Origin: an uncultured Eubacteriales bacterium
Lineage (GTDB): Bacteria; Actinomycetota; Coriobacteriia; Anaerosomatales; JAAXUF01
Length of the DNA: 64,000 nucleotides
NCBI GenBank assembly: GCA_964388455.1
Contig: CAYMAN010000009.1
Coordinates: forward strand, 9,711-73,710
Direction: 5' to 3'
Made by a program: the position numbers and the translations under genes. Below the pieces are notes generated by a model. It was given only the letters and a program-made list of their open reading frames with translations. It made no database searches and had not been told where the DNA came from. Below, in pieces: positions 6,100 through 64,000 of the stretch (position 1 is its first letter; each line of letters starts with the position of its first letter).

Positions 6100-6330
6100 T
6101 TCGGAGCGGTTCGGGGTGATCGACGGGGTTCCGGCGACACCGCGAGCCGGCCTCAAGTCCTCGAAGGCCGCGTCGCGCATCACTCGGCAGGTCTCCTGAC
6201 TGGCGATCGCAGCACGCACGGTCGCATCACAGTGGCGGGTACCGTCCCGGATTCTCACCGGGTTCCCTATTCTCCCGCGGCTCTCGCGCACGGGCACCGA
6301 ATGACGCCTGTTCAATTGGCAATGCGGAGA
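6100..6330 (-). promoter_or_regulatory. Cobalamin (B12) riboswitch
   Basis: The minus strand carries AGGGAACCCGGTGAGAATCCGGGACGGTACCCGCCACTGTG (6228-6266) and the B12 box CCAGTCAGGAGACCTGCC (6186-6203). It sits directly 5' of the BtuFCD-like operon. Confidence 0.85.
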
Positions 6331-9490: not shown

Positions 9491-9750
9491 CCTATCGACG
9501 CCACTGGGACGTCGACGATTGCGGTGACCTCGCGCCGGCCGGACCGTCGGCATCGAGATCGATCTCTCGGCGAGTGAGGGGGACAAGTGCACCCGCCGAG
9601 GCATTACGTGAATCAGTGTGCACACTCACTATCGAGTGTCGCGGCCTAATACTGAACCACTTTGTGGTGCGTGCCTGTGACCCTCGTCACAGCTCTATCA
9701 CACTTCTGCCACACGACAAGAATACCTTGCAATGAGGACGTGGGAACGGG

Positions 9751-18315: not shown

Positions 18316-18316
18316 G

Positions 18317-21072: not shown

Positions 21073-21079
21073 CGGCTGG

Positions 21080-23367: not shown

Positions 23368-24116
23368 GTGCGTGCCCTTCCTAGTATCAGCCAGCCGATG
23401 AGACCGGCGGCGATGACGATGAGGACCGAGGCTCCGAGGGTGAGCCACAACGGCGTGTGCACCGGCGGCGCGACGGGCGGAGATGCGAGCGGCGTGAACA
23501 CAGCGCGTTCCGAGACCGCGCGCACCTGGAAACCGGTGCCGACAAACGGAAGCAGCGGACCGGCGTAGATCCACTGCGGGCTGTGCGGGTCGTGACACCC
23601 TGCGGCGGTGCACTTGGCGAGCCGCTTGCCGTGGGTGCCGGCCAGCCACTCCTTGTACTTGGGCGAGTGGCACTTCTCGCAGACCCTGGCGACGTCGCCC
23701 TTGATGTCGACGGTGGTGCCGTCCATGGTCTTGAGCTTGCCGGGGTTCTTGGCGGCGTCGTCGTGGCAGACGAGACACGCCTCGCCTTCCGCGGCCAGTC
23801 GATCGTGACCGACGAGCTTGACCTGATGCCCCTTGAAGTCGTTGGGCAGCTTCTTGGTCGGCTTTCCGCCCGCGCCCATGACCACCGGATGGCAGTCCGT
23901 GCACGGGTAGAAGAACAGATCGCCCGAGGCGGCCTGCCCGGCAAACGCCGCGGGCGCGGTCGCCAGAACAACCGATGCGACCAAAACGAGAAGTAGGGAA
24001 ACAACTACGAAAGCCCCGCGTGACCAGGGGCGGCTCCGGGCCGTGAGTCCCGGATCTGTGAACGAATGCTGCACGTCTATGGTATTGACACCACCTTGGT
24101 CGCGAGTTGTTCCCAC
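23364..24116 (-). CDS. Tetrahaem cytochrome c3-like protein with signal peptide and C-terminal TM anchor
   Basis: GTG start. Signal peptide ending AFA-GQ. Haem motifs CTDCH, CLVCH, CEKCH and CTAAGCH (CX4CH, 23592-23612). The C-terminal hydrophobic helix is LWLTLGASVLIVIAAGLIGWLIL. Confidence 0.85.
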   Translation of the reverse strand: MGTTRDQGGVNTIDVQHSFTDPGLTARSRPWSRGAFVVVSLLLVLVASVVLATAPAAFAGQAASGDLFFYPCTDCHPVVMGAGGKPTKKLPNDFKGHQVKLVGHDRLAAEGEACLVCHDDAAKNPGKLKTMDGTTVDIKGDVARVCEKCHSPKYKEWLAGTHGKRLAKCTAAGCHDPHSPQWIYAGPLLPFVGTGFQVRAVSERAVFTPLASPPVAPPVHTPLWLTLGASVLIVIAAGLIGWLILGRART

Positions 24117-39956: not shown

Positions 39957-41669
39957 ATGAAGGCGTCACAACTTCGCGCCCGCTACTGGCGCATCGTGTT
40001 CTTCTTTGGCCGAGTGACGCTCGGCTTCATCTTCTGGGAGATCTTCCTGCGTCGCATCGGTCTGGGCGCGTGGGCGGCTCGCGGCCGCACCGAGCGCAAC
40101 CGCGCCACGGCGGTCCGCTTCCGCGCACTCGCCATCCGTATGGGCGGCCTGATGATCAAGGTCGGCCAGTTCCTCTCGGCCAGGCTCGACGTGCTTCCGG
40201 CGGAGATCACCGACGAGCTCTCCGGCCTCCAAGACGAGGTACCCGCCGAGAGTTTCGCCGCGATCCGCGCACAGGCCGAGAACGAGCTCGCGCTCCCGCT
40301 GTCTGAGCATTACGAGTGGTTCGACGAGACGCCGCTGGCTGCCGCATCGCTGGGTCAGGCACACCGCGCGCGCCTGAACGAGGCGGACGCTGCCGAACTG
40401 GGATTCGCCGACGTCGTCGTCAAGGTGCAGCGGCCCCACATCGAGGCTGTGGTCGAGGTCGACCTGTCGGCGCTGCGACGCGTCGGCGGCTGGCTCAAGC
40501 GCTACAAGCCAATCAGCGACCGGGCGGATGTGGGCGCGCTCATCGAGGAGTTCGCCACCACCACGCGCGCGGAGATCGACTATCTCGCCGAGGCCAGCAA
40601 CGCCGAGTCCTTCTCGGCGGCGTTTGTCGACGACCCGCGCGTGCACGTGCCGCGCGTGGTGTGGGAGCTGAGCACGCGTCGGGTGCTGACGCTCGAGGAC
40701 GTCTCGGCGATCAAGCTCGGCGACTACGACGCGATCACTGCAGCGGGCATCGACCGCACGCAGGTCGCAGAAGTCCTGGTCGACACGTATATGCGGCAGA
40801 TCTTCGAGGACGGCTTCTTCCACGCGGACCCGCACCCCGGCAACCTCTTCGTTACACCGCTCGACACGTACGATGCCGACGGCAAGCAAGAGTGGAAGCT
40901 GACGTTCATCGACTTCGGGATGATGGGCCACGTGCCCGAGAACCTGCGCGCCGGACTGCGCGAGGCGGTCATCGCCATCGGCACACAGGACGGCAAACGG
41001 CTGGTGAAGAGCTTCAAGACACTCGACGTGCTGCTTTCCAGCGCCGATCTCGCCCTGATCGAGCGAGCGAGCATGGCCGTCTTCGACCGCTTTGGCGGTA
41101 TGAGCATGGGCGAGCTGCGCGAGATCGATCACGCGCAAATGATGAACTTCGGCCTGCAGTTCCGCGAGCTGATGCTCAACCTCCCCTTCCAGCTGCCGGA
41201 GAACCTGCTGCTGCTGGGCCGCTCGCTCGCGATCCTCTCGGGTATGTGCACGGGGCTATCCCCCGAGTTCAACCTCTGGACCTCGATCGCCCCCTACGCA
41301 ACCAAACTCATCTCCGACGAGTCCGACGGCGAGGGCGGCTTTGGCGGCACCTTCAACACGATCCTGGCCGAAGGCACGAAGGTCTTCCAGACCGCTATCG
41401 GCCTGCCGGGTCGCGCTGACCGCGTACTGACGCTCATGGAACGCGGCGAGTTCAGTGTGCAGACGCCGATGCTCGACCTGCGCGTGCGGAGGTTGGAGCG
41501 ATCGGTGGCGCGTGCCGTCACGGCGCTGGTGTTCGCGGCGCTGCTCATCGCAGGCGCGATCGTCTACGCGACCGACCCTGGGCTCGGCAAGCTGCTCATG
41601 GGCGCCTCGGTGTTGCCGCTGCTTGCAGTGCTGCTGGGCGGCCGTGGCGGACATCCCGGCAGACGGTAG
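39957..41669 (+). CDS. ABC1/UbiB-family atypical kinase, membrane-anchored
   Basis: ABC1 motifs (PLAAASLGQAHRARL, HADPHPGNLF, IDFGMMG). C-terminal TM helices. Confidence 0.9.
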   Translation: MKASQLRARYWRIVFFFGRVTLGFIFWEIFLRRIGLGAWAARGRTERNRATAVRFRALAIRMGGLMIKVGQFLSARLDVLPAEITDELSGLQDEVPAESFAAIRAQAENELALPLSEHYEWFDETPLAAASLGQAHRARLNEADAAELGFADVVVKVQRPHIEAVVEVDLSALRRVGGWLKRYKPISDRADVGALIEEFATTTRAEIDYLAEASNAESFSAAFVDDPRVHVPRVVWELSTRRVLTLEDVSAIKLGDYDAITAAGIDRTQVAEVLVDTYMRQIFEDGFFHADPHPGNLFVTPLDTYDADGKQEWKLTFIDFGMMGHVPENLRAGLREAVIAIGTQDGKRLVKSFKTLDVLLSSADLALIERASMAVFDRFGGMSMGELREIDHAQMMNFGLQFRELMLNLPFQLPENLLLLGRSLAILSGMCTGLSPEFNLWTSIAPYATKLISDESDGEGGFGGTFNTILAEGTKVFQTAIGLPGRADRVLTLMERGEFSVQTPMLDLRVRRLERSVARAVTALVFAALLIAGAIVYATDPGLGKLLMGASVLPLLAVLLGGRGGHPGRR

Positions 41670-41682
41670 CGCGCAAGCGGGG

Positions 41683-43122
41683 CTAGTCGTCGTCCCTGGA
41701 CTTGCCGGGCTTCTGTCGGCCGTCCTTCCACGAGCCCGCCGCCGGGTCCGGCCCTCGGCTGACGGCGTAGTTCACGACCGAGAGGGGCTCCGCCTGCACG
41801 TCAGCCTCCGGGAACTGCGCATACACCTCGTTCTCAGGGATATCCGCGTTGTACTCGGCAGGCAGTGCCTGGGGGCTGAAGCCCGCGTCCTTGATTGCAG
41901 CGAAGGCCTCGGCTGCATCCATGCCTACGATACCGGGCACTGTCGCCACCGACGGTTCAGGGATCACGGCTGGAGCGGTCTCGGTCGCAGGAGTCGTCTG
42001 TGAACTGTCGGCCGCCCGTGACCCTGGCGTGGAGCTCGCACTGCGCGGTGGATCGCTGGCGGTGACGCCGTCCGGACCGAGTCGCGAGGCCATCCCAAGC
42101 CCGGCAGCCGCGAGCAGTACCGCGAGCGCCACCCACGCCCAAGCGGGACGATGCGCACCCACTCGTGACTCCGTGTCCAGAGTGTCCGCGAACACGGGCT
42201 CGGCACTGGCACTCGCGCCTGCACCCTCGACTCCCTCGAATCCTGCACCGACCACCGGCATGACCGCAGTCTTGTCGACGCGGCCGATGACGCTGGTAGC
42301 GGCACCAGCGGCACCGGACGCGATCGCGTCCAGCTCGCGGCGCATCTCATCGGCCGAGGCGTAACGATCGTCGGGGTTCTTCTGCATCGCCTTGATGATC
42401 ACGGACTCGAGTGCTGGGTCGATCCCAGGGTTCACAGCGCTTGGCAACGGAGCCACCTCGCCCACGTGCATGAGTGCGACCGTCACGGGATTATCGGCGT
42501 CAAAGGGTAGACGCCCTGTCGCGGCTTCGTAGAGGGTAACGCCCAGCGAGTACAGATCGCTCGCAGGGCTCAACGGCTTGCCCTGCGCCTGTTCGGGCGA
42601 GAGGTACTGGACGGTTCCCATGACCGATCCGGTCTGCGTCATCGCCGAGTTGCCGGCGCGCGCGATCCCGAAGTCCATCACCTTCACCGAGCCGTCCGGC
42701 TGCACCATGATGTTGTGCGGCTTGATATCACGGTGGATCACGTCGTAGCCGTGTGCAGCCGACAGGGCCGTACACACCTGAGCGCCGATCTCAGCGACAC
42801 GCGACGAGGGTAGCGCCGCATCATGCTCGACCTGCTTGAGATCGGACCCCTGAACGTACTCCATGACGATGTAGTAGGAATCCCCGTCCTGGCCCCAGTC
42901 GTACATATTCACTATGTAGGGGCTGACCAGGTTGGCGGCCGCCCGCGCCTCCTGACGAAACCGCGCTGCGAAGTGCGGTGATGTCGCAAAGCGTGCATGC
43001 ATCACCTTGACGGCGACGGTCCTACCGAGCGTCTCGTCGACTGCCCGATAGATGTCCGCCATACCGCCGGAACCGATCTTCTCGGTCACGCGGTATCTTC
43101 GGCCGAACAGCAGTTCCTTCAT
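41683..43122 (-). CDS. Ser/Thr protein kinase with TM helix and a single C-terminal PASTA domain
   Basis: ATG 43122. Kinase motifs GSGGMADIY, HRDIKPHN, DFGIA and SPEQ, followed by a TM helix and then a PASTA-like region (VPGIVGMDAAEAFAAIKDAGF...). Confidence 0.9.
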   Translation of the reverse strand: MKELLFGRRYRVTEKIGSGGMADIYRAVDETLGRTVAVKVMHARFATSPHFAARFRQEARAAANLVSPYIVNMYDWGQDGDSYYIVMEYVQGSDLKQVEHDAALPSSRVAEIGAQVCTALSAAHGYDVIHRDIKPHNIMVQPDGSVKVMDFGIARAGNSAMTQTGSVMGTVQYLSPEQAQGKPLSPASDLYSLGVTLYEAATGRLPFDADNPVTVALMHVGEVAPLPSAVNPGIDPALESVIIKAMQKNPDDRYASADEMRRELDAIASGAAGAATSVIGRVDKTAVMPVVGAGFEGVEGAGASASAEPVFADTLDTESRVGAHRPAWAWVALAVLLAAAGLGMASRLGPDGVTASDPPRSASSTPGSRAADSSQTTPATETAPAVIPEPSVATVPGIVGMDAAEAFAAIKDAGFSPQALPAEYNADIPENEVYAQFPEADVQAEPLSVVNYAVSRGPDPAAGSWKDGRQKPGKSRDDD

Positions 43123-43317
43123 GCGGCGCTCCCGTGCTCGTGTACGCGCCGAGGTCTGTCGAGTCTCATCTCGGCTCGAGCGATGTGTGGGTCGCGCCGC
43201 TCGGCCAGCTGCCAGCGGACACGGCAACGTCGGCATCAGGTGCCGACGTACCCTTGTCAGTGCAACTATCAGGCCCTTTGGCGAACTCGGACGTCTGATG
43301 CCCCACGCCGCAGCGGG

Positions 43318-46476: not shown

Positions 46477-46788
46477 ACACAAGGAGGGGGGAGGAGGGGT
46501 GTGTCCGGCTCTGCCAAACCGGCCGCATCTCTTCTAAGGAGTACGTTCGTCCTTCTCGGTGAATCTGTGATGACGATCGCGTGCCCGTGCTGTGGGTCAG
46601 TCGTGGAGATGCCGTGAACCGACGTCGACAACGACTCCCGCGCGATGCCCCCTGGCGTTGTGGCGCATGGCCGGCCCGTGTCCGAACCCGCTGAACTGGG
46701 TACGGGTCATCTAGAGACTTCCCGCGGATCTCGTCACCGACACCACTGTCGGTGGCTTCCTCAGCCGCGGCGAGCAAGGGGGCACCAC

Positions 46789-48252
46789 ATGTCACGCGAC
46801 AAGAAGCTCACCACCAATGTCGGAGCACCGGTTCCGGACAACCAGAATGCGATGACCGCCGGCCCCCGGGGGCCGATGTTGTTGCAGGACGTCTGGTTCC
46901 TCGAAAAGCTCGCGAACTTCGACCGTGAGGTGATTCCGGAGCGTCGGATGCACGCGAAGGGCTCGGGAGCCTTCGGCACGTTCACGGTGACGAACGACAT
47001 CACCGAGTACACCAAGGCCGACATCTTCTCGGCGATCGGCAAGGAGACCGAGTTGTTCGTGCGCTTCTCGACCGTCGCTGGCGAACGCGGCGCGGCGGAC
47101 GCAGAGCGCGACATCCGCGGCTTCGCGGTCAAGCTCTACACCCAGCAGGGCAACTGGGATCTCGTGGGCAACAACACGCCGGTGTTCTTCCTGCGCGACC
47201 CGCTCAAGTTCCCGGATCTCAACCACGCCATCAAGCGCGATCCGCGCACCAACATGCGCAGCGCCGGCAACAACTGGGACTTCTGGACGTCGCTTCCCGA
47301 GGCGCTCCACCAGATCACCATCGTAATGAGCGACCGCGGCCTGCCGGCGAGCTACCGCACCATGCACGGCTTCGGCAGCCATACGTTCAGCATGATCAAC
47401 GCCGAGGGAGTGCGTCACTGGGTCAAGTTTCGCTGGGAGTGTCAGCAGGGCATCAAGAACCTGACCGACGCCGAGGCCGAAGCGCTTGTGAGCAAAGATC
47501 GCGAGAGTCATCAGCGTGACCTCTACGAGGCCATCGAACGGGGCGACTTCCCCAAGTGGACGCTGCAGCTGCAGGTCATGCCCGAGGCCGACGCGGCCAA
47601 GATGCCGTACAACCCCTTCGACCTGACCAAGGTCTGGTATCACGGCGACTACCCGCTCATCGAGGTCGGCGTGATGGAGCTCAACCGCAATCCCGAGAAC
47701 TACTTCGCCGACGTCGAGCAAGCCGCATTCAACCCCGCTAACGTCGTACCAGGCATCGGGTTCTCCCCCGACAAGATGCTGCAGGGCCGTCTGTTCTCGT
47801 ACGGCGACGCCCAGCGCTACCGCCTCGGCGTCAACAACCACCTGATCCCCGTCAACGCCGCACGGTGCCCGGTCCATGGCTACAGCCGAGACGGCGCGAT
47901 GCGCGTGGACGGCAACTACGGTGGCACCCTGGGATACGAGCCCAACAGCTACGGTGAGTGGGCCGAGCAGCCCGATTTCGCGGAGCCCCCTCTGCCGCTC
48001 GACGGAGCACCAGCCGACCACTGGGACTTCCGAGAGGACGACGACAACTACTACGAGCAGCCCGGCAGGCTCTTCCGCCTGATGTCGCCGGCGCAGCAGC
48101 AGGTGCTGTTCGACAACACCGGCCGTGCGATGGGCGACGCTCCCAAGGAGGTCAAGCTCCGCCACATCGGCAACTGCCTCAAGGCGGATCCGGCATACGG
48201 CGAAGGCGTGGCCAAGGCGCTGGGCATTGCGGTGAGCGAGGCCGAGGCGTAG
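46789..48252 (+). CDS. katA: Monofunctional haem catalase (small-subunit type)
   Basis: ATG 46789 follows AAGGGGG. Contains [20 protein letters not shown], the RDIRGFAVK motif and the proximal-Tyr region [14 protein letters not shown]. Confidence 0.95.
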
Positions 48253-48261
48253 GGAGCGACG

Positions 48262-50844
<2,583 letters not shown>

Positions 50845-50868
50845 GTCGCTACCTCCGCATTGCCTGCG

Positions 50869-51282
50869 CTATCCCTGATGCCGCATGACCGCACCGCGCT
50901 CGACGCGCACGATGGCCGCGCGCACCTCTCGGACGCGGACCTGCTCGCGCGCATGACGCGCCGCCGCTTCCGCCCGAGCCGCACGCACGCGCATCGCGTC
51001 GAGCTCGGCACGCATCCGGGCCGCTTCGCGCTCGAGTTCGATGATGCGCACGACCCCGGCGAGATTGATGCCCTCCTCCTGCGTGAGCTGCTGGATCAGT
51101 CGAAGCCTGTCGACGTCTGCCTGCGAGTAAAGCCGCGTATTGCCCTGCGAGCGTTGCGGCCGAATGAGCTGCTTGCGCTCGTAGATGCGCAGCGTCTGAG
51201 GGTGCACGCCGGCAAGGTCCGCGGCGACGCTGATCATGTACAGCGGCCTGTCATCATCCCGTGAGACTCTCACGTCTCTCAT
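50869..51282 (-). CDS. hspR: MerR-family heat-shock repressor HspR
   Basis: MerR HTH (YMISVAADLAGVHPQTLRIYERKQLIRPQRS.GNTRLYS). Positioned between dnaJ and clpB as in actinobacterial dnaK operons. The start is uncertain (ATG 51282 or GTG 51273). Confidence 0.85.
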   Translation of the reverse strand: MRDVRVSRDDDRPLYMISVAADLAGVHPQTLRIYERKQLIRPQRSQGNTRLYSQADVDRLRLIQQLTQEEGINLAGVVRIIELEREAARMRAELDAMRVRAARAEAAARHAREQVRVREVRAAIVRVERGAVMRHQG

Positions 51283-51330
51283 CCTTCCAGAGGTGGTTGT
51301 CGCGCCATGACGCCGACCGCGCATCGTCTT

Positions 51331-52284
51331 CTACGTGATATGAGCTCGCACATCGTCCGCCGAGAGACCCGCGAACGCCTCAAGCGCCTCGCGCTGTTCG
51401 TCGGTCAGCGACTCAGGCACGGCGACGTTGACGCGGACCTTGAGATCGCCGTGTTCCGACCCATTCAGCTTGGGCGCTCCCTTGCCGCGCACGCGATGCA
51501 CCTTGCCACTCTGCGTGCCGGCGGGAATCTTGAGCTTCACTTTGCCGCCGTCGGGCGTCGGCACGCGAATCTCAGTGCCCAGCACCGCCTCGGCAAAGGT
51601 GATCGGCACGTCGATGATCACATCGGCCCCATCGCGTGAGTAGTATGGATGCCGACGGATGTGCGTCGTGACGTACAGGTCGCCGGCCGGCCCGCCGTTG
51701 GCCCCGGCCGCGCCTTTGCCCTTGAACCGCAGCTTGCCGCCATCGGTGGCGCCCGCCGGAACGGTCACGCTGACGGAACTTCCAGCACCGCTGCGCATCG
51801 TCTTCTTCGTTCCGCTGAACGCCTCTGCGAACGTCAGGTCCAGTTTGGCCTCCTGGTCTGCGCCTCGGTGCGGCTGTGGCCGACCGCCAAAGCCCGAGCC
51901 ACCGAACCCTCCGCCACCGCCGCCGAACACGCTACCGAAGAGATCGCCCAAGTCGCCAAGGTCGCCCATGTTGACGCTTTGATAGCCGCCCCCGCGACCA
52001 CCTCCGCCACCCGGAAAGCCACCCCCCGGCCAGCCGCCGGCACCGCCAGCGCCGCCCGGAGGCATCCCTCCGCCAAAGTACTGTCCGTACTGGTCATACT
52101 GCGTACGCTTCTCGCTGTCCGAGAGAACCTCGTACGCCTCGTTTATCTGCTTGAACTTCTCCTCATCGCCGCCCGCGTCCGGATGATGCTTGCGGGCAAG
52201 CTTGCGAAACGCCTTCTTGATCTCATCGGCGGTCGCGTCCTTCTTCACTCCGAGAAGCTCGTAGTAGTTGGTCTTGGGGCTCAT
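51331..52284 (-). CDS. dnaJ: DnaJ-class co-chaperone lacking the zinc-finger domain (type II / CbpA-like)
   Basis: J-domain with HPD, a Gly-rich linker and C-terminal substrate-binding domains. No CxxCxGxG repeats are present. Confidence 0.85.
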
Positions 52285-52289
52285 GGCGC

Positions 52290-53060
52290 CTACTCCTCGC
52301 GCTTCGGTCCCCCGGTGGACACGACGACCATAGCCGGGCGCACCACGCGTCCGCCCATCGCATAGCCCTTCTGGAAGACGGCGACCACAGTGCCCTCGGG
52401 CACCTCGGCATCCTCCTGCTGGCTGACGGCCTGCTGCGTGTTGTGGTCGAACGGCTGACCGAACGGATCGATCACCTCGACGCCTTCCTTGCCGAGAATC
52501 CCGATGACCTGCGCGTGCACGGCCTCGACACCCGCGAGCAGGTGGACGAGGTCGCCACCTGCTGTCGTGTGCTCGATGGCGCGCTCCAGGTTGTCGATTG
52601 CCGGCAGCAGCTCGCTGACCAGACGCTCGCCAGCCCGCTTGCGCTCTTCTTCGCGCTCACGGCTGGTGCGCTTCCGGAAGTTGTCGAACTCCGCCTGCCC
52701 GCGAGCCACGCGATCCCGAAGATCCGCGGCCTCCCCGCGAGCCGCCTCAAGCTCGGCCTCCATGACGTCCCCACGCAACTCGAACTCAGCGCCCAGATCC
52801 GCTTCCAGCTCCGGATCGAAAGCGTCGCCGGCATCCAGCCCGCCAGCAGCACCCCCAGCGCGCGCCGAAGGCGTCGCGCCCTTGGAGGCTGCAGAAGCCT
52901 TAGTGGCGTCGGAGTCATGCGGCTTAGGGTTCTTGACACCCCGCGGCCCGGAGGCCCCTCCGGCAGTGCCGAAGGGAGCCTCCGCAGCGCGATCTTCGCG
53001 AGGACCGCGACCGGAGGTACTACCGGAGGGGCCGTCAGGTCCGATTGGTCGAGTACTCAT
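52290..53060 (-). CDS. grpE: Nucleotide exchange factor GrpE
   Basis: Disordered N-terminus, coiled coil ([11 protein letters not shown]), and the GrpE C-terminal beta domain (GTVV.V.QKGY). Confidence 0.9.
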
Positions 53061-53062
53061 GG

Positions 53063-54958
<1,896 letters not shown>

Positions 54959-55074
54959 GATGTGGTTCCCCTTTCATGTCCGAGCCGCATGTGCGCGGAT
55001 CGAGCCTTCTGACATATTCGATGTCCGTTAATGCGCGAGAATGGCGCACGAAGCACACTACATCTTTTGTGCGG

Positions 55075-55115
55075 GTGTCAACTTAATATCTGAGTGCATC
55101 ATTGTCAAGTTTCGT
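55075..55115 (-). promoter_or_regulatory. Candidate dnaK promoter with a degenerate HAIR-like (HspR operator) element
   Basis: The minus strand reads aaCTTGACAatgatgcACTCAGAtattaagTTGACAc. There are two TTGACA hexamers. The CTTGAca-N7-ACTCAga element matches the HAIR consensus CTTGAGT-N7-ACTCAAG at 10 of 14 positions with the correct spacing. Confidence 0.35.
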
Positions 55116-55313
55116 GTCAGCGTGCTTTATAGTTCTACCCTCATTTACGGCAACTGAACCCTCGGCTTGATGCGCGTTGTCGGCCCTCGAACAGGATCGC
55201 CGAATGCTGTCCGCGAAGTACGGTCTTTACACGACCCGTAACGGTCGGTACAGTACGCACGAAACTGCGGCGGGACACCTCGCCTACGAGTCAGGAAACG
55301 AGAAGGAGAACCG

Positions 55314-55502
55314 ATGCCCCGACCCATCATCACCGAGGACGATTGTTCGGCCTGCGGCATTTGCGTCGACGCGTGCCCCCACGACGTTCTGGAGATTGTC
55401 GGCGACGTCGCTGAGCCGGTTCGTGACGAGGACTGCGACGCCTGTGCGACGTGCATGGAAGAGTGCCCGATGGGCGCCATCACTGAGATCGAAGAGGACT
55501 AG
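55314..55502 (+). CDS. 2x[4Fe-4S] ferredoxin (62 aa)
   Basis: GAAGGAGA lies upstream. Two motifs, CSACGICVDACP and CDACATCMEECP. Confidence 0.85.
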   Translation: MPRPIITEDDCSACGICVDACPHDVLEIVGDVAEPVRDEDCDACATCMEECPMGAITEIEED

Positions 55503-55578
55503 CTCCTCGCGCTGACCCGCGAATAGTGACTCTCTGGGGGCGCTCCGATAAGGGGCGCTCCTTTCGCGTATCCGTCCG

Positions 55579-56148
55579 TCAGTACACCTTCGCGGGCGGC
55601 GTGGCGAGCTTGAGCTGTGACCAGACTCGCCGCTTGCGCGCGGTATCACCGAGCGAAGCCTCAAGCCCGTCGCACGCCAGCACGCGCCGTCCTCCCGCCC
55701 GCACCACCGTGCCCAGCACGAGCCGCTCGATCCCCAGCGCCTCCGCGACGTCTGCCGCGGCATCCGTGTCAACGGCAAGCACGAACTCCGGGTCGACGGT
55801 CTCGATCTGAAGCTGCAGCCGGGCTGTTCGGCGAGGGGCATCGGTGTTCGATCCCGGACGCGAGAGCGTGTAAAAGACCGAGTCGGGCTCCCAGCCCAAA
55901 GCACCGAGAGCCTTGCGCGCCGCCTCACCGTCTGCCCCGGACATGGCGGGCTTGCCGCTCGCCTCGGCCGGGCCGGGCAGGCCTTTGACCACAAAGATCG
56001 TCGCGAAGTGGGCGCCCGCGGACCCAACGGAGTCGGAACCCGGCAACCGCTTGTCAGCAGCAGCGAGCTCCGCTTTGACGCGCGCCTCGTGTTGCCCTCG
56101 GATGACGTCGGCGCTGAACTCTCGGGCTGTGTCGGGCTTATCGGTCAC
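55579..56148 (-). CDS. Uracil-DNA-glycosylase-superfamily-like protein with degenerate motifs (tentative)
   Basis: GTG 56148 overlaps the epimerase stop (GTGA). The layout resembles family-4 UDG, but it has GLPG in place of GE(G/A)PG and lacks both the HPS motif and the Fe-S cysteines. Confidence 0.4.
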   Translation of the reverse strand: MTDKPDTAREFSADVIRGQHEARVKAELAAADKRLPGSDSVGSAGAHFATIFVVKGLPGPAEASGKPAMSGADGEAARKALGALGWEPDSVFYTLSRPGSNTDAPRRTARLQLQIETVDPEFVLAVDTDAAADVAEALGIERLVLGTVVRAGGRRVLACDGLEASLGDTARKRRVWSQLKLATPPAKVY

Positions 56149-57092
56149 GCGCGTGAGGCGAACCACTGCCACGTGAACTGGAGGCCCACGTCGAGCGTCT
56201 GGTGCGCTTTCCAGCCAAACGCATGCACGGCCTTGGCGGGTGACAGTGAGCTACGCGCGACGTCGCCTTCTCGGCCGGGACGGAAGTCGGTGCCGCCGAG
56301 GTACCTCGAGGTCTGGCGAAGCGACATGAGCAGATCGTTCACGGAGATCTCCGAGCCGGTCGACACGTTGTAAGACGCACCGTCTGCTCCGTCCTGCGCG
56401 AGCTTGCCCTCGGCCACCAGCGCCGAGATGATCGCGCCGACCACGTCGCCGACGTAGATGAAATCACGTGTCTGCGTGCCGTCGCCGAAGATGATCGGCG
56501 GCGTCTGGGCATGCATCGCGGCGCAGAAGAGCGCGACGACCCCGCCCTCTCCGGCCGCATCCTGGCGCGGACCGTAGACGTTGCTGAAGCGGAAGCATGC
56601 GTGGTCGACGTCGGAGCCGGCGAGCGCATCGGCAAGCATGGACTCGGCCGCGAGCTTGCTCTTGCCGTAGGGGTTCGCAGGCGCCTTGGGCGCCGTCTCA
56701 ACCAGCGGCAACATGGCCGCATCGGGCTCGCCGTACACCGCTGCCGAGCTCGCGGAGATGACCCGACGAGCGCCGGCCGCGCGCGCGGCCCTGGCCACAG
56801 CCGCAGTGCCCTCGGCGTTGACGGCCCAGTCGCGCTCAGGGTCGCGCTGTGACTCGGTGACGCTGGCCTGTGCCGCGAGATGAACCACAGCATCCGGAGC
56901 GAACTCCGCAACCGCACCGGGCATCTCGGGAGAGAGTATGTCGAGCGTGCGGAACCACGCATGCGGATGCAGATTCTCGTGGTGGCCGGTCGACAGATCG
57001 TCGAGGACTCCGACACTGTGCCCACCGCTGATGAGCGCATGGACGAGGTTCGAGCCGATGAACCCGGCGCCGCCGGTTACCAATACGCGCAT
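56145..57092 (-). CDS. NAD-dependent epimerase/dehydratase (GalE-like)
   Basis: [11 protein letters not shown] and the catalytic YGKSK. Its start shares 1 nt with the lon stop codon. Confidence 0.85.
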
Positions 57093-59515
57093 CAGGCACC
57101 CTTCCGCGGAGTCGCAGGTCTGCTGGCCTTCACAGGCTTGACGGCCTTCGCGGGCTTGGGCGGCTTGAGGCCGGACGGCTTACATGCACGCGACAACGCG
57201 TGGTCGAGGACCTCGTCCATCGTCTTGACCGGGATGAGTTCGAGTTCGCTGCGCACCTTCTCGGGCAGCAGCACGAGGTCTCGTTCGTTGTCCTTGGGAA
57301 TCAGCACGGTCTTGAGGCCCGCGCGGTGCGCCGCGAGCAGCTTCTCCTTCAGGCCGCCGATGGGCAGCACGCGCCCTCGCAAGGTGATCTCGCCGGTCAT
57401 CGCCAGATCGCGCCGTACCGGACACGACAGCAGTGCCGAGGCGATCGCCGTCGCCATCGTGATACCTGCAGAGGGACCGTCCTTGGGCGTAGCCGCGGCC
57501 GGCACGTGGATGTGCAGGTCGAGTTTGTCCTGGAAGTTCTCAGGAAGGCCGAGGTCGAGGGCGCGCGTGCGGATGTAGGTGACCGCTGCGGTCGCCGACT
57601 CCTGCATGACGTCGCCGAGCTGGCCGGTGAGGATGAGCTTGCCGCTGCCCGCCATCTTGGTCGCCTCGATCGAGATCACGTCTCCGCCGACCTCGGTCCA
57701 GACCAGTCCTGTCGCGACACCTATCTCGTCGTTCTCCTCGGCCAGTCCGTAGCTGAACTTGGCCGGGCCCAGGTACTTGTGAAGCGTGCGCTCGGTGACG
57801 CTGGTCTTGCCCTTGGCGCCCTCGACAACCTTACGTGCGACCTGGCGCGCAATGGCGGCGATGGTGCGCTCGAGTCCTCGGACGCCGGCCTCGCGGGTGT
57901 ACACGCGGACGATGAGTCGCAGCGCGCCCTCACTGATGACGAGCTTGCTCGCCGAGAGGCCGTGCTCCCTGAGTTGCTTGGGGACCAGGTACTGCTCGGC
58001 GATGTGGAGCTTCTCGTCTTCCGTGTAGCCCGGGAAGTGGATGACCTCCATGCGGTCGCGCAGCGCCGGCGGAATCGTGTCGAGCATGTTCGCAGTGGTG
58101 ATGAACATGACGTTGGAGAGGTTGAACGGCGCCTCGAGATAGTGGTCCTGGAACGCGTTGTTCTGCTCGGGGTCGAGCACCTCCAGGAGCGCCGAGGTCG
58201 GATCGCCGCGGAAGTCGGTGCCCACCTTGTCGATCTCATCCATCATGAAGACGGGATTGTTGGTGCCCACCTGGCTGATCGACTGGATGATGCGGCCGGG
58301 CAGCGCGCCCACGTAGGTGCGCCGGTGACCGCGGATCTCAGCTTCGTCGCGTACGCCGCCGAGCGACTGGCGGATGAACTCGCGGTTCAGCGCTCGCGCG
58401 ATCGACTTGCCGATCGACGTCTTGCCCACGCCCGGAGGTCCCACGAAGCACAGGATCGGGCCGCGCATCTTGTCGGTGAGCTTATGCACGGCGAGGTACT
58501 CGAGGATGCGCTCCTTGACCTTTTCGAGGCCGTAGTGATCTTCGTCGAGAATGGCCTGCGCCTCGATCAGATCCAGCTTCTCCTCGGACTCGGTGTTCCA
58601 CGGCAGTCCTACGAGCCAGTCGAGGTAGGTGCGGATGACGCCGGTCTCGGCGGACTGCGGCTGCATCTTCTCGAGCCGCTTGAGCTCCTTAAGCGCCTTC
58701 TCCTCGACCTGCTCCGGCATGTGCGAGTCGCGGATCTTCTCGGTGTACTCGGTGATTTCTGCCTGGACCTCGTCGAACTGGCCGAGCTCCTGCTGGATCG
58801 CCTTGAGCTGCTCGCGCAGGAAGTACTCGCGCTGACTCTTGGTCATCTGCTCCTTGACGCGGTCCTGGATCTTGCTGCCCAGCTCGAGGATCTCGAGTTC
58901 CTTCTTGAGGAACCGGGTGATGAGCTCGAGGCGCGCGCGCGGATCGACCGCCTCAAGAATGTGCTGCTTCTCATCGGTCTTCAGGTTGAGGTGAAACGCC
59001 ACGAAGTCGCCGAGGCGACCTGGCTCTTCGAGTGCCGAAGCCGCGATGAGGACCTCCTGCGGGATCGGCTTGCCGAACTCCGCCGCACGCTCGAAGTCGC
59101 CGACGACGGCGCGCATGAGCGCCACGTCCTCGACGTCTGCGCCGAGAGGTTCCTCTATCATCTCCACGCGCACAAGGAAGTACGGCTCAGTCTGCACGTA
59201 CTCGAGGATGCGAAAGCGCTGCTGTCCCTCGACAAGCGCCTTGGCGGTGCCGTCGGGAAGCTTGAGCTCCTGCATGACCGAGGCGACGCAGCCGATCTCG
59301 AAGATGTCGCCCTCGCCGGGGTCCTGGGTCTCGGCGACCTTCTGCGTTGCGAGCGCGACGAGATGGCCTTCGCGCATCGCGGCTTCAAGTGCCTTGATGG
59401 AGCGCTCGCGGCCAACAAAGAGCGGCACCACGAGGTCGGGGAAGAGGATGATGTCCCTGAGCGGGATCAGGGGCAGAACATCCGGAATGATCGGTGTTTC
59501 ACTACGCTGCGACAT
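57092..59515 (-). CDS. lon: ATP-dependent protease Lon (LonA)
   Basis: LON N-domain, AAA+ module (GPPGVGKTS) and protease Ser motif PKDGPSAG. Lys/Pro-rich C-terminal tail. Confidence 0.97.
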
Positions 59516-59635
59516 GCACCCCTCGCGTTCTCTCGATTCAGTTCGTGCGATACTCTTGTGTGCCCGTTGCTAACACATGGTACACGCCCACGACCTCCCG
59601 GCGAACGGTGTCTGCCGCCGGTTCGGAGCCGCTTG

Positions 59636-61699
59636 ATGCCCATCACGCCTTGCACACTGACTAGCAGAATCGGCCGCGCGTTCGCGGTCGTGGCGGTCGT
59701 GCTGAGTGCGGTGGCGGCAACGTGGCTCACAGCGAACGCCGCTCCGTCGGCCATGCCGCCCTTCCCTGCCGACGAGCCGGTCCTCTCGGTGAGGCTCGAG
59801 AGCAGCCAACCAGCGGTCCCGACCACCGGGCAGTTTGCCTACACCACCCAGATTCGCCTCCAGACGCCGGCTTCCTATCTGCAGACGCGAATCCAGGTAC
59901 GGCGCCCGACAGGCCAGCTCATCTTCCAGCGGACCGATGTCGACAACAACCTGCCGGCCGGTACGCATGTCGCACAGTTCGGGCGATCACTTGTTGGGCT
60001 CGGCCTCGAGCCGGGCGCGTACCCCGTCGAAGTGGAGATCCGTGGCGACCTTGTGGGTGGTCTCGAGACGACGACCGTCGCGACCGAACTCCTGGTGTTC
60101 GACCCCGCGATGAAGGCGGCCGGGACCGTTCTGGTGGCACGCGTCACAGCTCGGCCACTTGAGGCACCTGACGGTAATCTGGCCATCGACCCGGCGGTGG
60201 CGACCAAAGCGCGCGACGACGTCACTTCGATCGCATCGCTCGTGGTCGCCGATCCCGCCGCCCGGATCACTCTGGCGATCCCACCGATGCTTCTGGGCGA
60301 GTGGCAGCGCATCTCGGACGGCTACACCATGACCGACGGCCGAGAAGTGCCTGCTGCAGACCCGACGGTCATCGCGTACACCAAGGCGCTCGAACTGCTG
60401 GACCAGGCGGTCTCGAGCGGCCGGCTGGAGCTACTGAGGACCGGACTCGCCGACCCGGATCTCGCTCAGCTCGCCGCACAGGGCCAGTCACGTGACGTGG
60501 TGCCACAGTACGAAGCGGGACTCTCCGCGACGTACGCGAGTCTCGAGACCTCACCTTCGACCGGGACCGTCCCTGCGGGCACGTGCATTCCGCCCGCGGC
60601 CATGCCCGCTCTCAAAGGCCTGGGGCTAGGCTACGTGATAGCCGACATCGGGTGCGCCCGCTCCGGCGATTCCACCGTAGCCAGTGGCTCGTATCCCATC
60701 TCGAACTCGAGCATGCGCGCGCTGCTCTCGGACCGCATAGCGAGCACGGCTCTCTCCTCGGCAGATACCACTGCGGCCATCAGGCGTATCGCGGCCGGCC
60801 AGGTGGTCAGACCCGGTCAGCCGACCGTTGTGCGCATAGAGCTCCCAGAGGGCGGATCGACCGCCACGCAGACGATCGTTCCCGCAGTCCGCGGGCTCGA
60901 GGGCAGAGGGTGGACGAGCCTGGTCCTGGGCCGAGAGACCGTCAGCCCGGGCAAGGTAAAGGCGGTACGCCTTCTGGCCGACAGAACCGGTCCCGCAGGC
61001 CCGCAAAACTATCTTGCCGCGGTGTCGCGCGCGCGGAGCTTCGCAGAAGCGCTCACATCAGCGCTCGGCGAGGCTGACCCCGACGCCTCCTCGGCCCGGA
61101 CGAGCTCGCTCGTGTCGCAGAGTTCCGCGTGGTCCGAGCCCGACAACACCTGGAGCGGTGCGGAGAGAGGCGAGGAGTTCGCGCTGGCCTCTCTCAAGAC
61201 ATCGCGCTCGATTCTCGACAGAATCGACCTCAAGATCGAGCCGATCACCCTCGCAGGTGCGAAAGGATCGGTCCCCGTCAGTCTCCAGAACGGTTCAGAG
61301 AAGGTCCTCCAGGTCACCGTGCGCACCTCGACACAGGGCGGCATCGAGGTCGTCGGCTCGAATCGGACCAAGACGATGATGAGGCCCCAGGAGACGTTCG
61401 TTCAGATTCCGGTCAACATGCATTCGGCACTCTCTGGCAGGCTCTCGGTCGAGGTCCTTGCCGGTGATGTGGTGTTCGCGCGACGGACGGTTGAGGTGCG
61501 CGCCTCGTATCTGGACCGACTCGCGGTGATCGGCGGCATCGTCATCGCACTCGCGATACTGCTCGCGTTCATCGTCCGAAGGGTGCGCGCGGCCGAGCGA
61601 GCCGAGGAAGCCGAGCTGGCACGAGCACACACTTCCGACACAAACGAGCGTTACACTGACTCGTCCGAACCGGAAGCAGAGGAGCCTGAGACCCTATGA
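59636..61699 (+). CDS. Large secreted protein with C-terminal TM anchor (DUF6049/Rv3909-like, tentative)
   Basis: ATG 59636 lies 7 nt after GGAG. Signal peptide ending ANA-AP. About 640-aa ectodomain, then a TM helix (LAVIGGIVIALAILLAFIV) and an acidic tail. The family call rests on architecture and on trxB-proximal synteny. Confidence 0.55.
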   Translation: MPITPCTLTSRIGRAFAVVAVVLSAVAATWLTANAAPSAMPPFPADEPVLSVRLESSQPAVPTTGQFAYTTQIRLQTPASYLQTRIQVRRPTGQLIFQRTDVDNNLPAGTHVAQFGRSLVGLGLEPGAYPVEVEIRGDLVGGLETTTVATELLVFDPAMKAAGTVLVARVTARPLEAPDGNLAIDPAVATKARDDVTSIASLVVADPAARITLAIPPMLLGEWQRISDGYTMTDGREVPAADPTVIAYTKALELLDQAVSSGRLELLRTGLADPDLAQLAAQGQSRDVVPQYEAGLSATYASLETSPSTGTVPAGTCIPPAAMPALKGLGLGYVIADIGCARSGDSTVASGSYPISNSSMRALLSDRIASTALSSADTTAAIRRIAAGQVVRPGQPTVVRIELPEGGSTATQTIVPAVRGLEGRGWTSLVLGRETVSPGKVKAVRLLADRTGPAGPQNYLAAVSRARSFAEALTSALGEADPDASSARTSSLVSQSSAWSEPDNTWSGAERGEEFALASLKTSRSILDRIDLKIEPITLAGAKGSVPVSLQNGSEKVLQVTVRTSTQGGIEVVGSNRTKTMMRPQETFVQIPVNMHSALSGRLSVEVLAGDVVFARRTVEVRASYLDRLAVIGGIVIALAILLAFIVRRVRAAERAEEAELARAHTSDTNERYTDSSEPEAEEPETL

Positions 61700-62070
61700 G
61701 AAAGGTAATCTACCTCCTGTTCGTTGTAGCCGTGCTCGCAATTCTGGCCAACGATGGCGGTCGGCTGTTCGTCGGCAAGAGCGCACTACGAGCGAACACG
61801 GGTACTCTGGCATCGTGGGCGATCAACAATGCCGACGGCATGACCCGAGAGCAGACGGCACAAGAACTCGCGAACCGCTCGGCCGCACTCAAGCTACGCG
61901 TCTATCAGTACGGACAGGACGACAAGCAGCTGCAGATCTGGACCGAGGCCGATGTCACCGGCCTGTGGGTCTTGGGAACGTATACGGCAACGCTTGAAGG
62001 CGTGCCCTTTCGTAAGGCCATAGGTAGACCCATAGTGATCAGAGACTACGCGGCTGCGCAGTACCGGTAA
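61696..62070 (+). CDS. Small N-terminally anchored hypothetical protein
   Basis: ATGA overlap with the upstream gene. TM helix VIYLLFVVAVLAILA. No recognised motif. Confidence 0.5.
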   Translation: MRKVIYLLFVVAVLAILANDGGRLFVGKSALRANTGTLASWAINNADGMTREQTAQELANRSAALKLRVYQYGQDDKQLQIWTEADVTGLWVLGTYTATLEGVPFRKAIGRPIVIRDYAAAQYR

Positions 62071-62116
62071 CGGCAGCACGAGACCACTCGCGTTCGCGAG
62101 GCGAAAGGCAACACGT

Positions 62117-63259
62117 ATGAACAAGGTCGTCGTACTGGACACAAACGTACTGCTGGCGGATCCCAACTCCGTCCTGTCGTTTCCTCGCGCCGAGATCGTC
62201 ATCCCTGAGACCGTGCTGGGCGAGCTGGATAAGCTCAAGACGGCGCGTGTGGATCCCGACCTGCGTTTCCGTGGCCGAGAAGTGAGCCGCATCCTCTTCG
62301 AGCTGTCCGAGGAAGGGTCGCTTATCGAGGGCGTCGACCTACCGGACGGCGGTCGGCTTCGTGTCGCCCCCTTCGAGAACGACGGGAGCCTGCCCGACGG
62401 ATTCCAGACCCGCAACGCCGACGATCGCGTGCTTGCCACCGCATACCAGGTCTGCAAGTCGTCGGATGCGACATGTGAGGTGACGCTGATCACGAACGAC
62501 CTGAACATGTTGCTCAAGGCGCAGACCCTCGGGGTGTCCGTGGAGCGCTACGCCGACGGGGTCGAGGGCGGTTTCGCCCGCAACTACATCATCAGGCCAT
62601 TCCAGCGCTACAAGACACCGATCACGATCCTTGCCGTCGCTCTCGCGGTGTTCGTCGCAGTGATCGTGATCGCGCTCTACATTCAGAAACCTATTCAGAA
62701 CAACGCGCAGCTGCCCTCGGAGCTCAAGAACGTACTGGCGCCGGGCCAGCTCAAGGCCCTCGATGCGATTCAGACCCTCCAGACGAACTCCAAGGATCCC
62801 GAGGCGCTGCTTTTCATGTCTAACTTCTACTACGACTTGCGAAACTCCGCCTCGGAGTCCGATCCTGTCGCCGCACTCGATTACGGACGTCAGGCGATTC
62901 GCTACTTCGAGCGCTATATGGTGGTATCACCGCAGGACGGGTCTGCGAAGGTCGACCTTGCTGCGCTCTACTTCTACAACGGCCAGACCGACCTGGCGAT
63001 CAACCTCGTCGGCGAAGTACTCAAAGAGGACAAGAACCACGTGAGCGGAAACTTCAATCTCGGTATCTTCTACTGGAAAGGCCCGCAGCGTGATTTTCAG
63101 GCCGCTGCCGCACAGTTCCAGAAGGTGATCGACCTGACCAAGAACGACGCTCAGCAGCATTCGCTCTTCAAGCAGGCGGAGGCGTTCCTCGCCCAGCTCG
63201 AGAATGAAGCGAAGTCTGCCGGACGACCCCTCGAGACCACCGCAGGAGTGTCACAGTGA
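62117..63259 (+). CDS. PIN-domain (PhoH/YlaK-N-terminal type) - TM - TPR-repeat fusion protein
   Basis: PIN acidic residues are intact (VVLDTNVLL, PETVLGELD, NADDRVLA, ITNDLNML). TM helix ITILAVALAVFVAVIVIALYI. The ~185-aa C-terminal region is TPR-like. Confidence 0.7.
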   Translation: MNKVVVLDTNVLLADPNSVLSFPRAEIVIPETVLGELDKLKTARVDPDLRFRGREVSRILFELSEEGSLIEGVDLPDGGRLRVAPFENDGSLPDGFQTRNADDRVLATAYQVCKSSDATCEVTLITNDLNMLLKAQTLGVSVERYADGVEGGFARNYIIRPFQRYKTPITILAVALAVFVAVIVIALYIQKPIQNNAQLPSELKNVLAPGQLKALDAIQTLQTNSKDPEALLFMSNFYYDLRNSASESDPVAALDYGRQAIRYFERYMVVSPQDGSAKVDLAALYFYNGQTDLAINLVGEVLKEDKNHVSGNFNLGIFYWKGPQRDFQAAAAQFQKVIDLTKNDAQQHSLFKQAEAFLAQLENEAKSAGRPLETTAGVSQ

Positions 63260-64000
63260 CCAGAGAACGTATCGATATCGCGATCATCGGTGGAGGTCCG
63301 GGCGGACTCGCTGCCGCCCTGTACGCATCGCGCGGCCGCGCCAAGACGGTCGTCTTTGAGCGGGGCATCCCGGGTGGCCAGATCGTGACCACCGACTGGG
63401 TGGAGAACTACCCGGGCTTCCCCAAGGGTGTCTCAGGCCAGGAACTCGGCGATCTGCTGACGGCACAGGCCGAGGAGCACGGCGCGGTCATCCGGTCGTT
63501 CGCTCCGGTGGACTCCATCAAGCAGGAGAACGACGGGATGTTCGTGCTGACCTGTGAGGATGAGGAGTTCGAGGCGTACAGCGTCATCGTCGCCACGGGT
63601 GCCGTCCCCCGGAAGCTCGGTATACCGGGCGAGGCCGAATTCACCGGGAGGGGCGTTTCGTGGTGCGCCACCTGTGACGGCGCGCTGTTCCGCGAGAAGG
63701 TCGTGGCCGTCATCGGCGGTGGCGATGCCGCGGTTGAGGAGGCTATGTTCCTCACCAAATTCGCGAGCCAGGTGCACCTGATCCACCGCCGCGACGAGTT
63801 CCGTGCGACGCGCTGCATCCAGGAGCGCTGCCGAGCCAACCCCAAGGTCGAGGAGCACCTCAGCCGCGTGCCGGTCGAGGTCGTCGGCAAGGACGGCAAG
63901 GTGGCCGGATTGCGACTGGAGTCGACCAAGGGTGAGCCCGAGGAGTATCTTGCGCTCGACGGCGTCTTCATCTTTGTCGGCGTGGATCCGATGAACGAAC
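63256..64000 (+). CDS. trxB: Thioredoxin-disulfide reductase (3'-truncated by the window edge)
   Basis: GTG 63256 follows AGGAG (7 nt spacer) and overlaps the upstream stop (GTGA). IIGGGPGG, redox-active CATCDG, GGGDAAVEEA. The frame stays open to the window end, which is why it is absent from the ORF track. Confidence 0.9.
   Translation, partial: MTRERIDIAIIGGGPGGLAAALYASRGRAKTVVFERGIPGGQIVTTDWVENYPGFPKGVSGQELGDLLTAQAEEHGAVIRSFAPVDSIKQENDGMFVLTCEDEEFEAYSVIVATGAVPRKLGIPGEAEFTGRGVSWCATCDGALFREKVVAVIGGGDAAVEEAMFLTKFASQVHLIHRRDEFRATRCIQERCRANPKVEEHLSRVPVEVVGKDGKVAGLRLESTKGEPEEYLALDGVFIFVGVDPMNE

Follow-up and report, generated by a model that had tools for sequence, protein, structure and literature searches.

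What does a ribonuclease (RNase) domain do when it shares one polypeptide with a repeat domain on the other side of the membrane? This question is raised by the gene at 62117–63259 (plus strand) of a 64,000-nucleotide stretch of DNA, here called the window, which covers positions 9,711 to 73,710 of contig CAYMAN010000009.1 (assembly GCA_964388455.1) from an uncultured bacterium assigned by GTDB to the Anaerosomatales of the Coriobacteriia. An earlier note, made from the letters of the DNA, had described the product as a PIN nuclease joined through a transmembrane (TM) helix to an extracytoplasmic tetratricopeptide repeat (TPR) domain, and had likened this domain to the apocytochrome c chaperones CcmI and NrfG. 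We refer to the protein as PIN-TM-TPR. Its individual domains are ordinary. Together they form a PIN RNase in an undescribed membrane and ectodomain architecture with a distinctive conserved genomic context.

The open reading frame (ORF) starts with ATG and encodes 380 aa; its coordinates, 62117–63259, include the stop codon. It was matched by more than 1400 homologues at E ≤ 1e-3 in a large protein collection, and the 120 listed were nearly all near full length with 60–100% identity, so it is no chance ORF. The domain order PIN, TM, TPR was borne out by Pfam, hydropathy, and AlphaFold2. Residues 1–147 (62117–62557) form the PIN_4 nuclease domain, predicted to be cytoplasmic, with the catalytic residues D8, E36, D102, and D128. 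Residues 148–165 (62558–62611; GFARNYIIRPFQRYK) form a linker and a conserved basic juxtamembrane helix, followed by a single TM helix of the signal-anchor type with N-in/C-out orientation at residues 166–189 (62612–62683). The predicted extracytoplasmic part consists of a variable linker with a conserved P200-x-E202 motif (residues 190–208, 62684–62740) and a TPR-type helical repeat domain of eight helices (residues 209–367, 62741–63217). All of these features lie on the plus strand.

The AlphaFold2 model, obtained from 61 homologues, showed a mean predicted local distance difference test score (pLDDT) of 84. It placed the α/β PIN domain at residues 1–145, followed by a poorly ordered linker, a short helix (153–164), and the long TM helix (166–189). 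After an unstructured ecto-linker, the eight helices between residues 209 and 367 were modeled with pLDDT values above 90. Mean pairwise identity among 79 species was 0.71 for the PIN domain, 0.65 for the juxtamembrane helix, 0.55 for the TM helix, 0.46 for the TPR domain, and 0.37 for the ecto-linker. The stronger conservation of the PIN domain and juxtamembrane helix fits a constrained catalytic module joined to a faster-evolving ectodomain.

The Pfam PIN_4 model (PF13638) matched residues 5–145 with an E-value of 4.5e-23 and a score of 82.4 bits against a cutoff of 21.9, covering model positions 1–131 of 132, and the same model was matched by 61/61 homologues. In an alignment with the human SMG6 PIN domain (2hww, 2hwx), D8 corresponded to D1251, E36 to E1282, and D128 to D1392, and D102 occupied the third acidic position of the PIN active site. 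The profile for this alignment combined PIN-TM-TPR with PhoH2-type PIN domains, and the E1282C mutant entry 2hwx fixed the register. A profile was needed here, as phmmer with the single PIN sequence against the PDB gave only a spurious sliding-clamp match (E 0.41). D8, E36, D102, and D128 were invariant across the 61 close homologues. When PIN-TM-TPR members at 37–50% identity and PhoH2-type PIN domains were considered, D8, E36, and D128 remained invariant and D102 was conserved in at least 90%. The PIN fold of the AlphaFold2 model showed strands at residues 3–7, 26–30, 80–84, 121–125, and 141–143. Foldseek with the N-terminal half gave SMG6 PIN 2hwx as the best PDB match (E 1.3e-5, target TM-score 0.64), and further matches were the Thermus YacL-type PIN 3ix7 (E 4.3e-4) and MJ1533 (3i8o). 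The earlier assignment to the PhoH/YlaK N-terminal type with four intact acidic residues was therefore confirmed by the PIN_4 match and the SMG6 alignment. The intact active site suggests that the domain is a metal-dependent endoribonuclease of the SMG6/PhoH2 type.

PIN-TM-TPR shares the PIN_4 subfamily and the same four catalytic acids with PhoH2/YlaK and with the PIN domain of SMG6, which is the closest solved fold. The nearest relatives outside the family were PhoH2-type and short PIN_4 proteins, with 35–45% identity over residues 1–146. It is nevertheless not a PhoH2 protein, because it lacks the PhoH ATPase domain and carries the TM helix and TPR domain instead. The NCBIfam PhoH2 model (NF053827) gave 70.1 bits against a cutoff of 680, and only model positions 2–143 of 427, the PIN part, were covered. 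Several signatures mark the subfamily. One is a conserved basic helix, D46-x-D-L-R-F-R-G-R-E-V-S-R. Compared with PhoH2-type PIN domains, there is a 2-residue insertion with the D-x-x-L-R-F-R-G-R motif, and the third acidic site reads ‘DD’ and not ‘DN’. A further signature is T-N-D-L-N-M-L-L-K-A-Q. Two unusual PIN_4 relatives also came up among the representatives searched: P0193 (653 aa) has PIN_4 followed, by eye, by an Omp85/BamA-type β-barrel region, and P0208 is PhoH2-like and by eye carries an intein-like insertion in its ATPase domain.

On which side of the membrane do the two domains lie? The topology was called by the positive-inside rule and hydropathy, with 79 orthologues from species-representative genomes. 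One hydrophobic segment was present at about residues 166–189, with Kyte–Doolittle values up to 3.24 over 19 residues, and exactly one such segment was found in 72 of the 79 orthologues. The 15 residues on the N side of the TM helix contained on average 4.9 K/R and 0.01 D/E, and the 15 residues on the C side 1.4 K/R and 1.8 D/E; in 79/79 the K/R excess lay on the N side. No N-terminal signal peptide was present, as the N-terminal end is formed by the first β-strand of the PIN domain. The ectodomain was essentially free of cysteine (0.01 Cys per protein, compared with 1.4 in the PIN domain). The charge bias, the single segment, and the missing signal peptide therefore predict a type II (N-in/C-out) bitopic protein, in which the PIN domain is predicted to face the cytoplasm and the TPR domain the outside. 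The earlier proposal of an RNase inside and a TPR domain outside is thus supported by the charge bias, and an arrangement with both domains in the cytoplasm was not obtained.

A PIN domain at the cytoplasmic membrane has one precedent among the proteins compared. COG4956 has been described with four TM helices, PIN, and TRAM, membrane-bound and of unknown function (PMC5499597). The likeness of PIN-TM-TPR to these YacL-type PIN-TRAM proteins (COG4956; 3ix7) is the membrane location of the PIN domain, and the similarity is at fold level only. In YacL, four TM helices stand at the N-terminus and are joined by a PIN domain of the PF01850 type and by TRAM, all intracellular, and there is no ectodomain. 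PIN-TM-TPR, in contrast, has a single TM helix that follows the PIN domain, a large TPR ectodomain, and no TRAM match, and it does not belong to the YacL type.

The family is not confined to this organism. One genome per GTDB species was scanned, and a relative was encoded in 155. The loci read were those of 80 of these 155 species genomes, plus distant loci such as L082 and L084–L087 (87 loci in the cytochrome count given below). The 80 kept genomes were all metagenome-assembled genomes (MAGs) labelled Coriobacteriia, Anaerosomatales, Actinomycetota, or similar, some of them mislabelled ‘Eubacteriales’, and every carrier identified in this work was a MAG. A HMMER scan of residues 1–195 against 1.84 billion representatives at 50% identity gave 36 matches at E ≤ 1e-30, and most of the full-length ones aligned through the TM helix. 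Weaker matches ended at residue about 146 and were PhoH2-like or short PIN_4 proteins. Representatives at 37–46% identity kept the PIN domain and a single TM helix, with three to six TPRs. A profile search from distant representatives found 249 proteins at E ≤ 1e-20, whose names included Thermoleophilia, Candidatus Aquicultorales, Actinomycetota, and one ‘Firmicutes’ MAG. The family is vertically inherited in deep-branching Actinomycetota, namely environmental Coriobacteriia (e.g., Anaerosomatales), Thermoleophilia, and Aquicultorales.

The earlier note did not recognise the architecture as described. This part stands: NCBI names the products ‘PIN domain-containing protein’ or ‘tetratricopeptide repeat protein’, and no description of PIN-TM-TPR was found in the PIN superfamily classification (PMC5499597) or by full-text literature searches. 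The family is sizeable, however, and in several deep-branching classes of actinobacteria its architecture is common, not rare.

What the TPR domain resembles was analyzed with several methods. Pfam TPR_19, TPR_2, and TPR_16 matched residues 259–346. The CcmH/CycH-type model PF23914 (TPR_CcmH_CycH) scored 13.7 bits (E 0.056) for the window protein, below its cutoff of 42. Among 61 homologues PF23914 reached E < 0.01 in 28 (best E 4.8e-7), compared with 59 for TPR_19 (best E 1.3e-12), and TPR_16, TPR_17, TPR_14, and TPR_11 each matched more of the 61 members than PF23914. PDB profile searches with full-length and TPR-only alignments were led by engineered consensus TPRs, followed by OGT (O-GlcNAc transferase), SPINDLY, MamA, and YrrB, and Foldseek matched the TPR region to consensus TPRs, MamA, and SycD. 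The matches listed by these PDB profile and Foldseek searches included neither NrfG nor CcmI. Automatic names from the Joint Genome Institute (JGI) for homologues include ‘CcmH/NrfG’, ‘TadD’, ‘PilF’, and ‘FCF1’; these are generic-TPR or PIN mislabels. The region is an ordinary, canonical TPR domain of about four hairpins.

Proteins of the CcmI/CycH/NrfG group also carry an extracytoplasmic TPR domain on a membrane anchor, and a weak, sub-threshold hidden Markov model similarity to them exists. PIN-TM-TPR differs from them in falling below the family threshold, in lacking the CcmI two-TM module, and in lacking a ccm or nrf context. No ccm, ccs, nrf, or res gene was found in the flanks of the 80 species loci or of 6 distant loci, and no ccm or ccs gene among the window ORFs scanned (about 16–33 kb and 40–64 kb). 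The resemblance to CcmI, NrfG, and CycH was therefore not upheld, and since the TPR similarity is generic, the specific link to cytochromes falls.

Multiheme cytochromes c are nevertheless encoded by the organism. NapC/NirT-type and c7-type multiheme cytochrome c genes lie at 17242–21072 (−) with NrfD-like and 4Fe-4S subunits, in a cluster that spans 17242–23904 (−). A MtrC/MtrF-like multiheme cytochrome gene lies at 30651–32237 (+), and an ORF that enters at the window start (1–1845, +) contains 6 CXXCH motifs. The cluster and the MtrC/MtrF-like gene suggest that electron transfer in this Coriobacteriia-like organism is extracellular or serves anaerobic respiration. Two distant loci (L084 and L085) have multiheme cytochrome genes within a few kb. 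In L084 (3070–8614, a Thermoleophilia MAG), PIN-TM-TPR lies ~1 kb from a NapC/NirT and multiheme cytochrome run, with two opposite-strand ORFs between them. Of 87 loci, only 2 had a multiheme cytochrome gene in the flanks that were read.

The gene neighborhood was strikingly constant. Across the 80 species loci, lon (−) is followed by the gene of a large protein of 687 aa in this window (+), PIN-TM-TPR, and trxB, with the large protein in 78/80 and trxB in 79/80; lon divergently adjoins the large-protein gene in 65/80. In the window, trxB (thioredoxin reductase; Pyr_redox_2 E 2.6e-39) begins with GTG and runs past the window end (63256–64000, +). Its start at 63256 overlaps the PIN-TM-TPR stop TGA (63257–63259) in the tetranucleotide GTGA (63256–63259), so the translational overlap reported earlier was found again. 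A promoter and terminator scan of 59400–64000 gave no signal above shuffle expectation. Co-transcription of these genes is suggested by start and stop codons that overlap or lie close together and by the lack of an internal promoter or terminator signal.

The upstream operon partner is the 687-aa protein (59636–61699, +), which has an N-terminal signal/anchor and a C-terminal TM helix. Pfam and NCBIfam gave no match for the window protein alone. In 28 orthologues DUF6049 was matched in 10 (best E 1.3e-8) and GH57 weakly in 8. Its AlphaFold2 model (pLDDT 86, predicted template modelling score 0.76) showed an N-terminal anchor, a β-sandwich, a GH57-like (β/α)7-barrel core, a second β-sandwich, and the C-terminal TM helix. 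With Foldseek, this model matched best to 7e1y_A, an amylopullulanase of GH57 (E 2.5e-24, with 533 aligned columns and a target TM-score of 0.66), and the next matches include more GH57 and GH38 enzymes. The protein is predicted to be a divergent DUF6049 member with an extracytoplasmic, membrane-anchored GH57-like part. The model further suggests that the DUF6049 family, predicted to be essential in mycobacteria, may be an extracytoplasmic glycan-acting enzyme. A longer ORF of 1499 aa (57200–61699, +) was rejected as one gene, because some 800 codons at its beginning lie antisense to lon and the real start is at 59636 with the signal/anchor. The stop-free frame antisense to lon is explained by the G+C content of 65%.

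Between the two genes lies a small bitopic protein of 124 aa (61696–62070, +), with an N-terminal TM helix followed by an N-D-x-G motif and no Pfam or NCBIfam match. Its ATG overlaps the stop of the 687-aa gene (ATGA at 61696–61699), and PIN-TM-TPR starts 46 nt downstream. A bitopic ORF of ~120 aa was found between the large protein and PIN-TM-TPR in 38/78 loci; elsewhere both genes abut. It was also present in the distant loci L085 (7642–8004) and L086 (7206–7562), with an inter-lineage identity of only 17–19%.

Distant members with only 37–45% PIN identity (L085, L086, and L082) keep the same slot. L085 shows lon (−) next to DUF6049, MurJ, a 120-aa ORF, PIN-TM-TPR, and trxA, and L086 shows lon (−) next to DUF6049/GH57, a 118-aa ORF, a CsoR-like gene, PIN-TM-TPR, trxB, and trxA. 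In L087 a 764-aa ORF precedes PIN-TM-TPR and trxA. L082 (7078–16627) contains Amj, PIN-TM-TPR, trxB, and trxA, followed after an interval by Amidase_3 with PG_binding_1 (CwlM-like), M23, and NlpC/P60. trxA follows trxB in L012, L082, and L086. Lipid II flippases are known from two families, MurJ and Amj.

A similar arrangement is known in mycobacteria. We take the M. tuberculosis protein Rv3909 to be a DUF6049 member. In H37Rv, sigM, encoding an extracytoplasmic function (ECF) sigma factor, and rsmA, encoding a membrane anti-sigma factor, presumably lie between mviN and trxB2; a literature search for Rv3910–Rv3913 gave nothing. Rv3909 adjoins mviN (MurJ), is probably co-transcribed with it, and is predicted to be essential (PMC6656915), and trxB2-trxC-cwlM form one locus (PMC7527780). 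In C. diphtheriae the DUF6049 protein dip2370 is annotated late in the locus-tag numbering (PMC12445094). The mycobacterial locus resembles the present one in having DUF6049 beside a flippase gene and a run of trxB, trxA or trxC, and an amidase, and these elements are reproduced around PIN-TM-TPR in L085 and L082. The difference lies in the slot between mviN and trxB2, which in mycobacteria presumably contains SigM and anti-SigM; here it contains PIN-TM-TPR, an unrelated protein. By analogy, this positional match may serve only as a lead for a regulatory role. From its conserved neighbors, PIN-TM-TPR sits in what looks like an ancient actinobacterial cell-wall and thioredoxin neighborhood.

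How might the two halves of the protein work together? We tentatively read PIN-TM-TPR as an envelope-docked, possibly envelope-gated, membrane-tethered endoribonuclease with IRE1-like logic and no homology to IRE1, a reading to which we give somewhat less than an even chance. The TPR ectodomain would bind a protein partner on the outer face, with the DUF6049-like ectoprotein encoded alongside it, or else the small bitopic protein, as the obvious candidates. Clustering or release dependent on this partner would be passed through the TM helix and the conserved basic juxtamembrane helix. The PIN nuclease might thereby be switched or positioned, and cytoplasmic RNA would be cleaved at the membrane. 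The status of the envelope would in this way be coupled to post-transcriptional control. The likeness to IRE1 is functional only: both are single-pass proteins with a putative sensor on the non-cytoplasmic side and an endoribonuclease in the cytoplasm. The template proposed for the mechanism is the activation of IRE1 by oligomerisation that its ectodomain drives. IRE1 has a kinase, a KEN RNase, and a lumenal peptide-binding domain, and the orientation is reversed: the N-terminal position is taken by the sensor in IRE1 and by the RNase in PIN-TM-TPR.

A more specific form would make PIN-TM-TPR a transmembrane sensor-RNase that fills the slot of SigM and anti-SigM in mycobacteria. Its TPR domain would monitor cell-wall assembly, via the DUF6049 ectoprotein or a lipid II flippase, and its PIN domain would cleave specific RNAs, possibly its own murJ, trxB, or trxA transcripts. 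We consider this detailed version unlikely.

Several points weigh against an envelope-gated RNase. Support for the family is computational throughout: it covers the domain identities, the intact active site, the predicted topology, the breadth of the family, and synteny, while RNase activity, the ectodomain ligand, any signal transmission, and the RNA targets are inferred. The topology is likewise a prediction, from the positive-inside rule and hydropathy. Signaling through the single TM helix is an assumption, and the data fit a constitutive membrane tether equally well. Being generic, the TPR domain gives no clue to a ligand. About half of the loci lack the small bitopic protein, a neighboring MurJ or Amj gene is confined to some distant lineages, and L082 showed no DUF6049 gene in the 8 kb upstream that were read. 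No partner other than the DUF6049-like protein is therefore co-encoded anywhere near universally, and the adjacency of trxB and trxA may reflect ancestral gene order and not shared function.

The tether explanation deserves the closest comparison. It states that the TM helix and TPR domain only localize the protein or scaffold it in an envelope complex, while the PIN domain processes or degrades RNA near the membrane without transmembrane gating. We judge this doubtful, with a chance that is still appreciable. It accounts for the same structural facts, and the membrane localization of RNase Y and RNase E, as well as YacL, can be likened to it; a membrane-bound PIN protein is already catalogued as COG4956 (PMC5499597), and the generic TPR domain shows no sign of a specific sensor. 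A folded ectodomain of ~160 aa kept across several actinobacterial classes exceeds, however, what a tether needs, and the strong conservation of the juxtamembrane helix hints at a role beyond anchoring.

Two other rivals are poorly supported. One takes the protein for an apocytochrome c chaperone of the CcmI/NrfG/CycH type, which would couple RNA cleavage to the maturation of cytochromes c. The reducing branch of that pathway is supplied by thioredoxin, and thioredoxin genes are adjacent; the organism also makes multiheme cytochromes c, L084 and L085 lie near such genes, and the ‘CcmH/NrfG’ names and the sub-threshold PF23914 matches (28/61) point the same way. PF23914 was, however, always weaker than generic TPR families, NrfG and CcmI did not appear in the top lists, the two-TM N-terminal module of CcmI is absent, and the loci read and window ORFs scanned held no ccm or ccs gene. 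Multiheme cytochrome genes lie in the flanks read of only 2 of 87 loci, and synteny tracks DUF6049 and flippase genes. This explanation is very improbable. Just as improbable is a PIN toxin of a toxin-antitoxin (TA) or anti-phage module with the small upstream gene as antitoxin. This is suggested by the small ORF directly upstream and by the classification of bacterial PIN_4 (COG1875) proteins under TA toxins, and PhoH2 has been described as TA modules coupled to RNA helicase domains (PMC5499597). The product of the small ORF is, however, a bitopic membrane protein that lacks a DNA-binding domain, the ORF is missing in half of the loci, and the annotated neighbors included no mobile-element genes. 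A VapC-type TA or defence toxin was rejected, because no antitoxin-like DNA-binding neighbor was present, inheritance is vertical with a fixed housekeeping neighborhood across classes, and a PADLOC scan of PIN-TM-TPR and both upstream genes gave no match.

Most of the PIN RNases known so far are soluble toxins or enzymes of RNA processing, and transmembrane signaling in bacteria is known mainly via kinases, anti-sigma factors, and proteolysis. If the envelope-gated RNase is real, a PIN domain behind an extracytoplasmic binding domain would connect the envelope with gene expression by another route, at the level of RNA itself, and its location inside an ancestral actinobacterial cell-wall and thioredoxin locus makes it more notable still. 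If the protein is a tether only, it would still be a new member of the small set of membrane-localized bacterial RNases. For the uncharacterised DUF6049/Rv3909 family the analysis gives two new handles, a predicted GH57-like fold and a conserved neighbor.

Other features of the window were recorded. Upstream of the locus (46645–59515) lies a group of stress-protein genes with catalase (46645–48252, +), clpB (48262–50844, −), dnaJ (51331–52284, −), grpE (52290–53060, −), and dnaK (53063–54958, −), followed by a 247-aa ORF (55284–56027, −), an NAD-dependent epimerase (56145–57092, −), and lon (57092–59515, −). A cobalamin riboswitch (RF00174, 92 bits, E 1.3e-21) at 6169–6316 (−) was the sole Rfam match in the whole window and is distant from the gene. 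A PASTA-domain Ser/Thr protein kinase, a PknB-like transmembrane cell-wall sensor, is encoded at 41683–43236 (−), and an ABC1 atypical kinase at 39957–41669 (+). The PASTA kinase is the canonical envelope-sensing single-pass signaling protein of the phylum and offers a useful comparator for PIN-TM-TPR.

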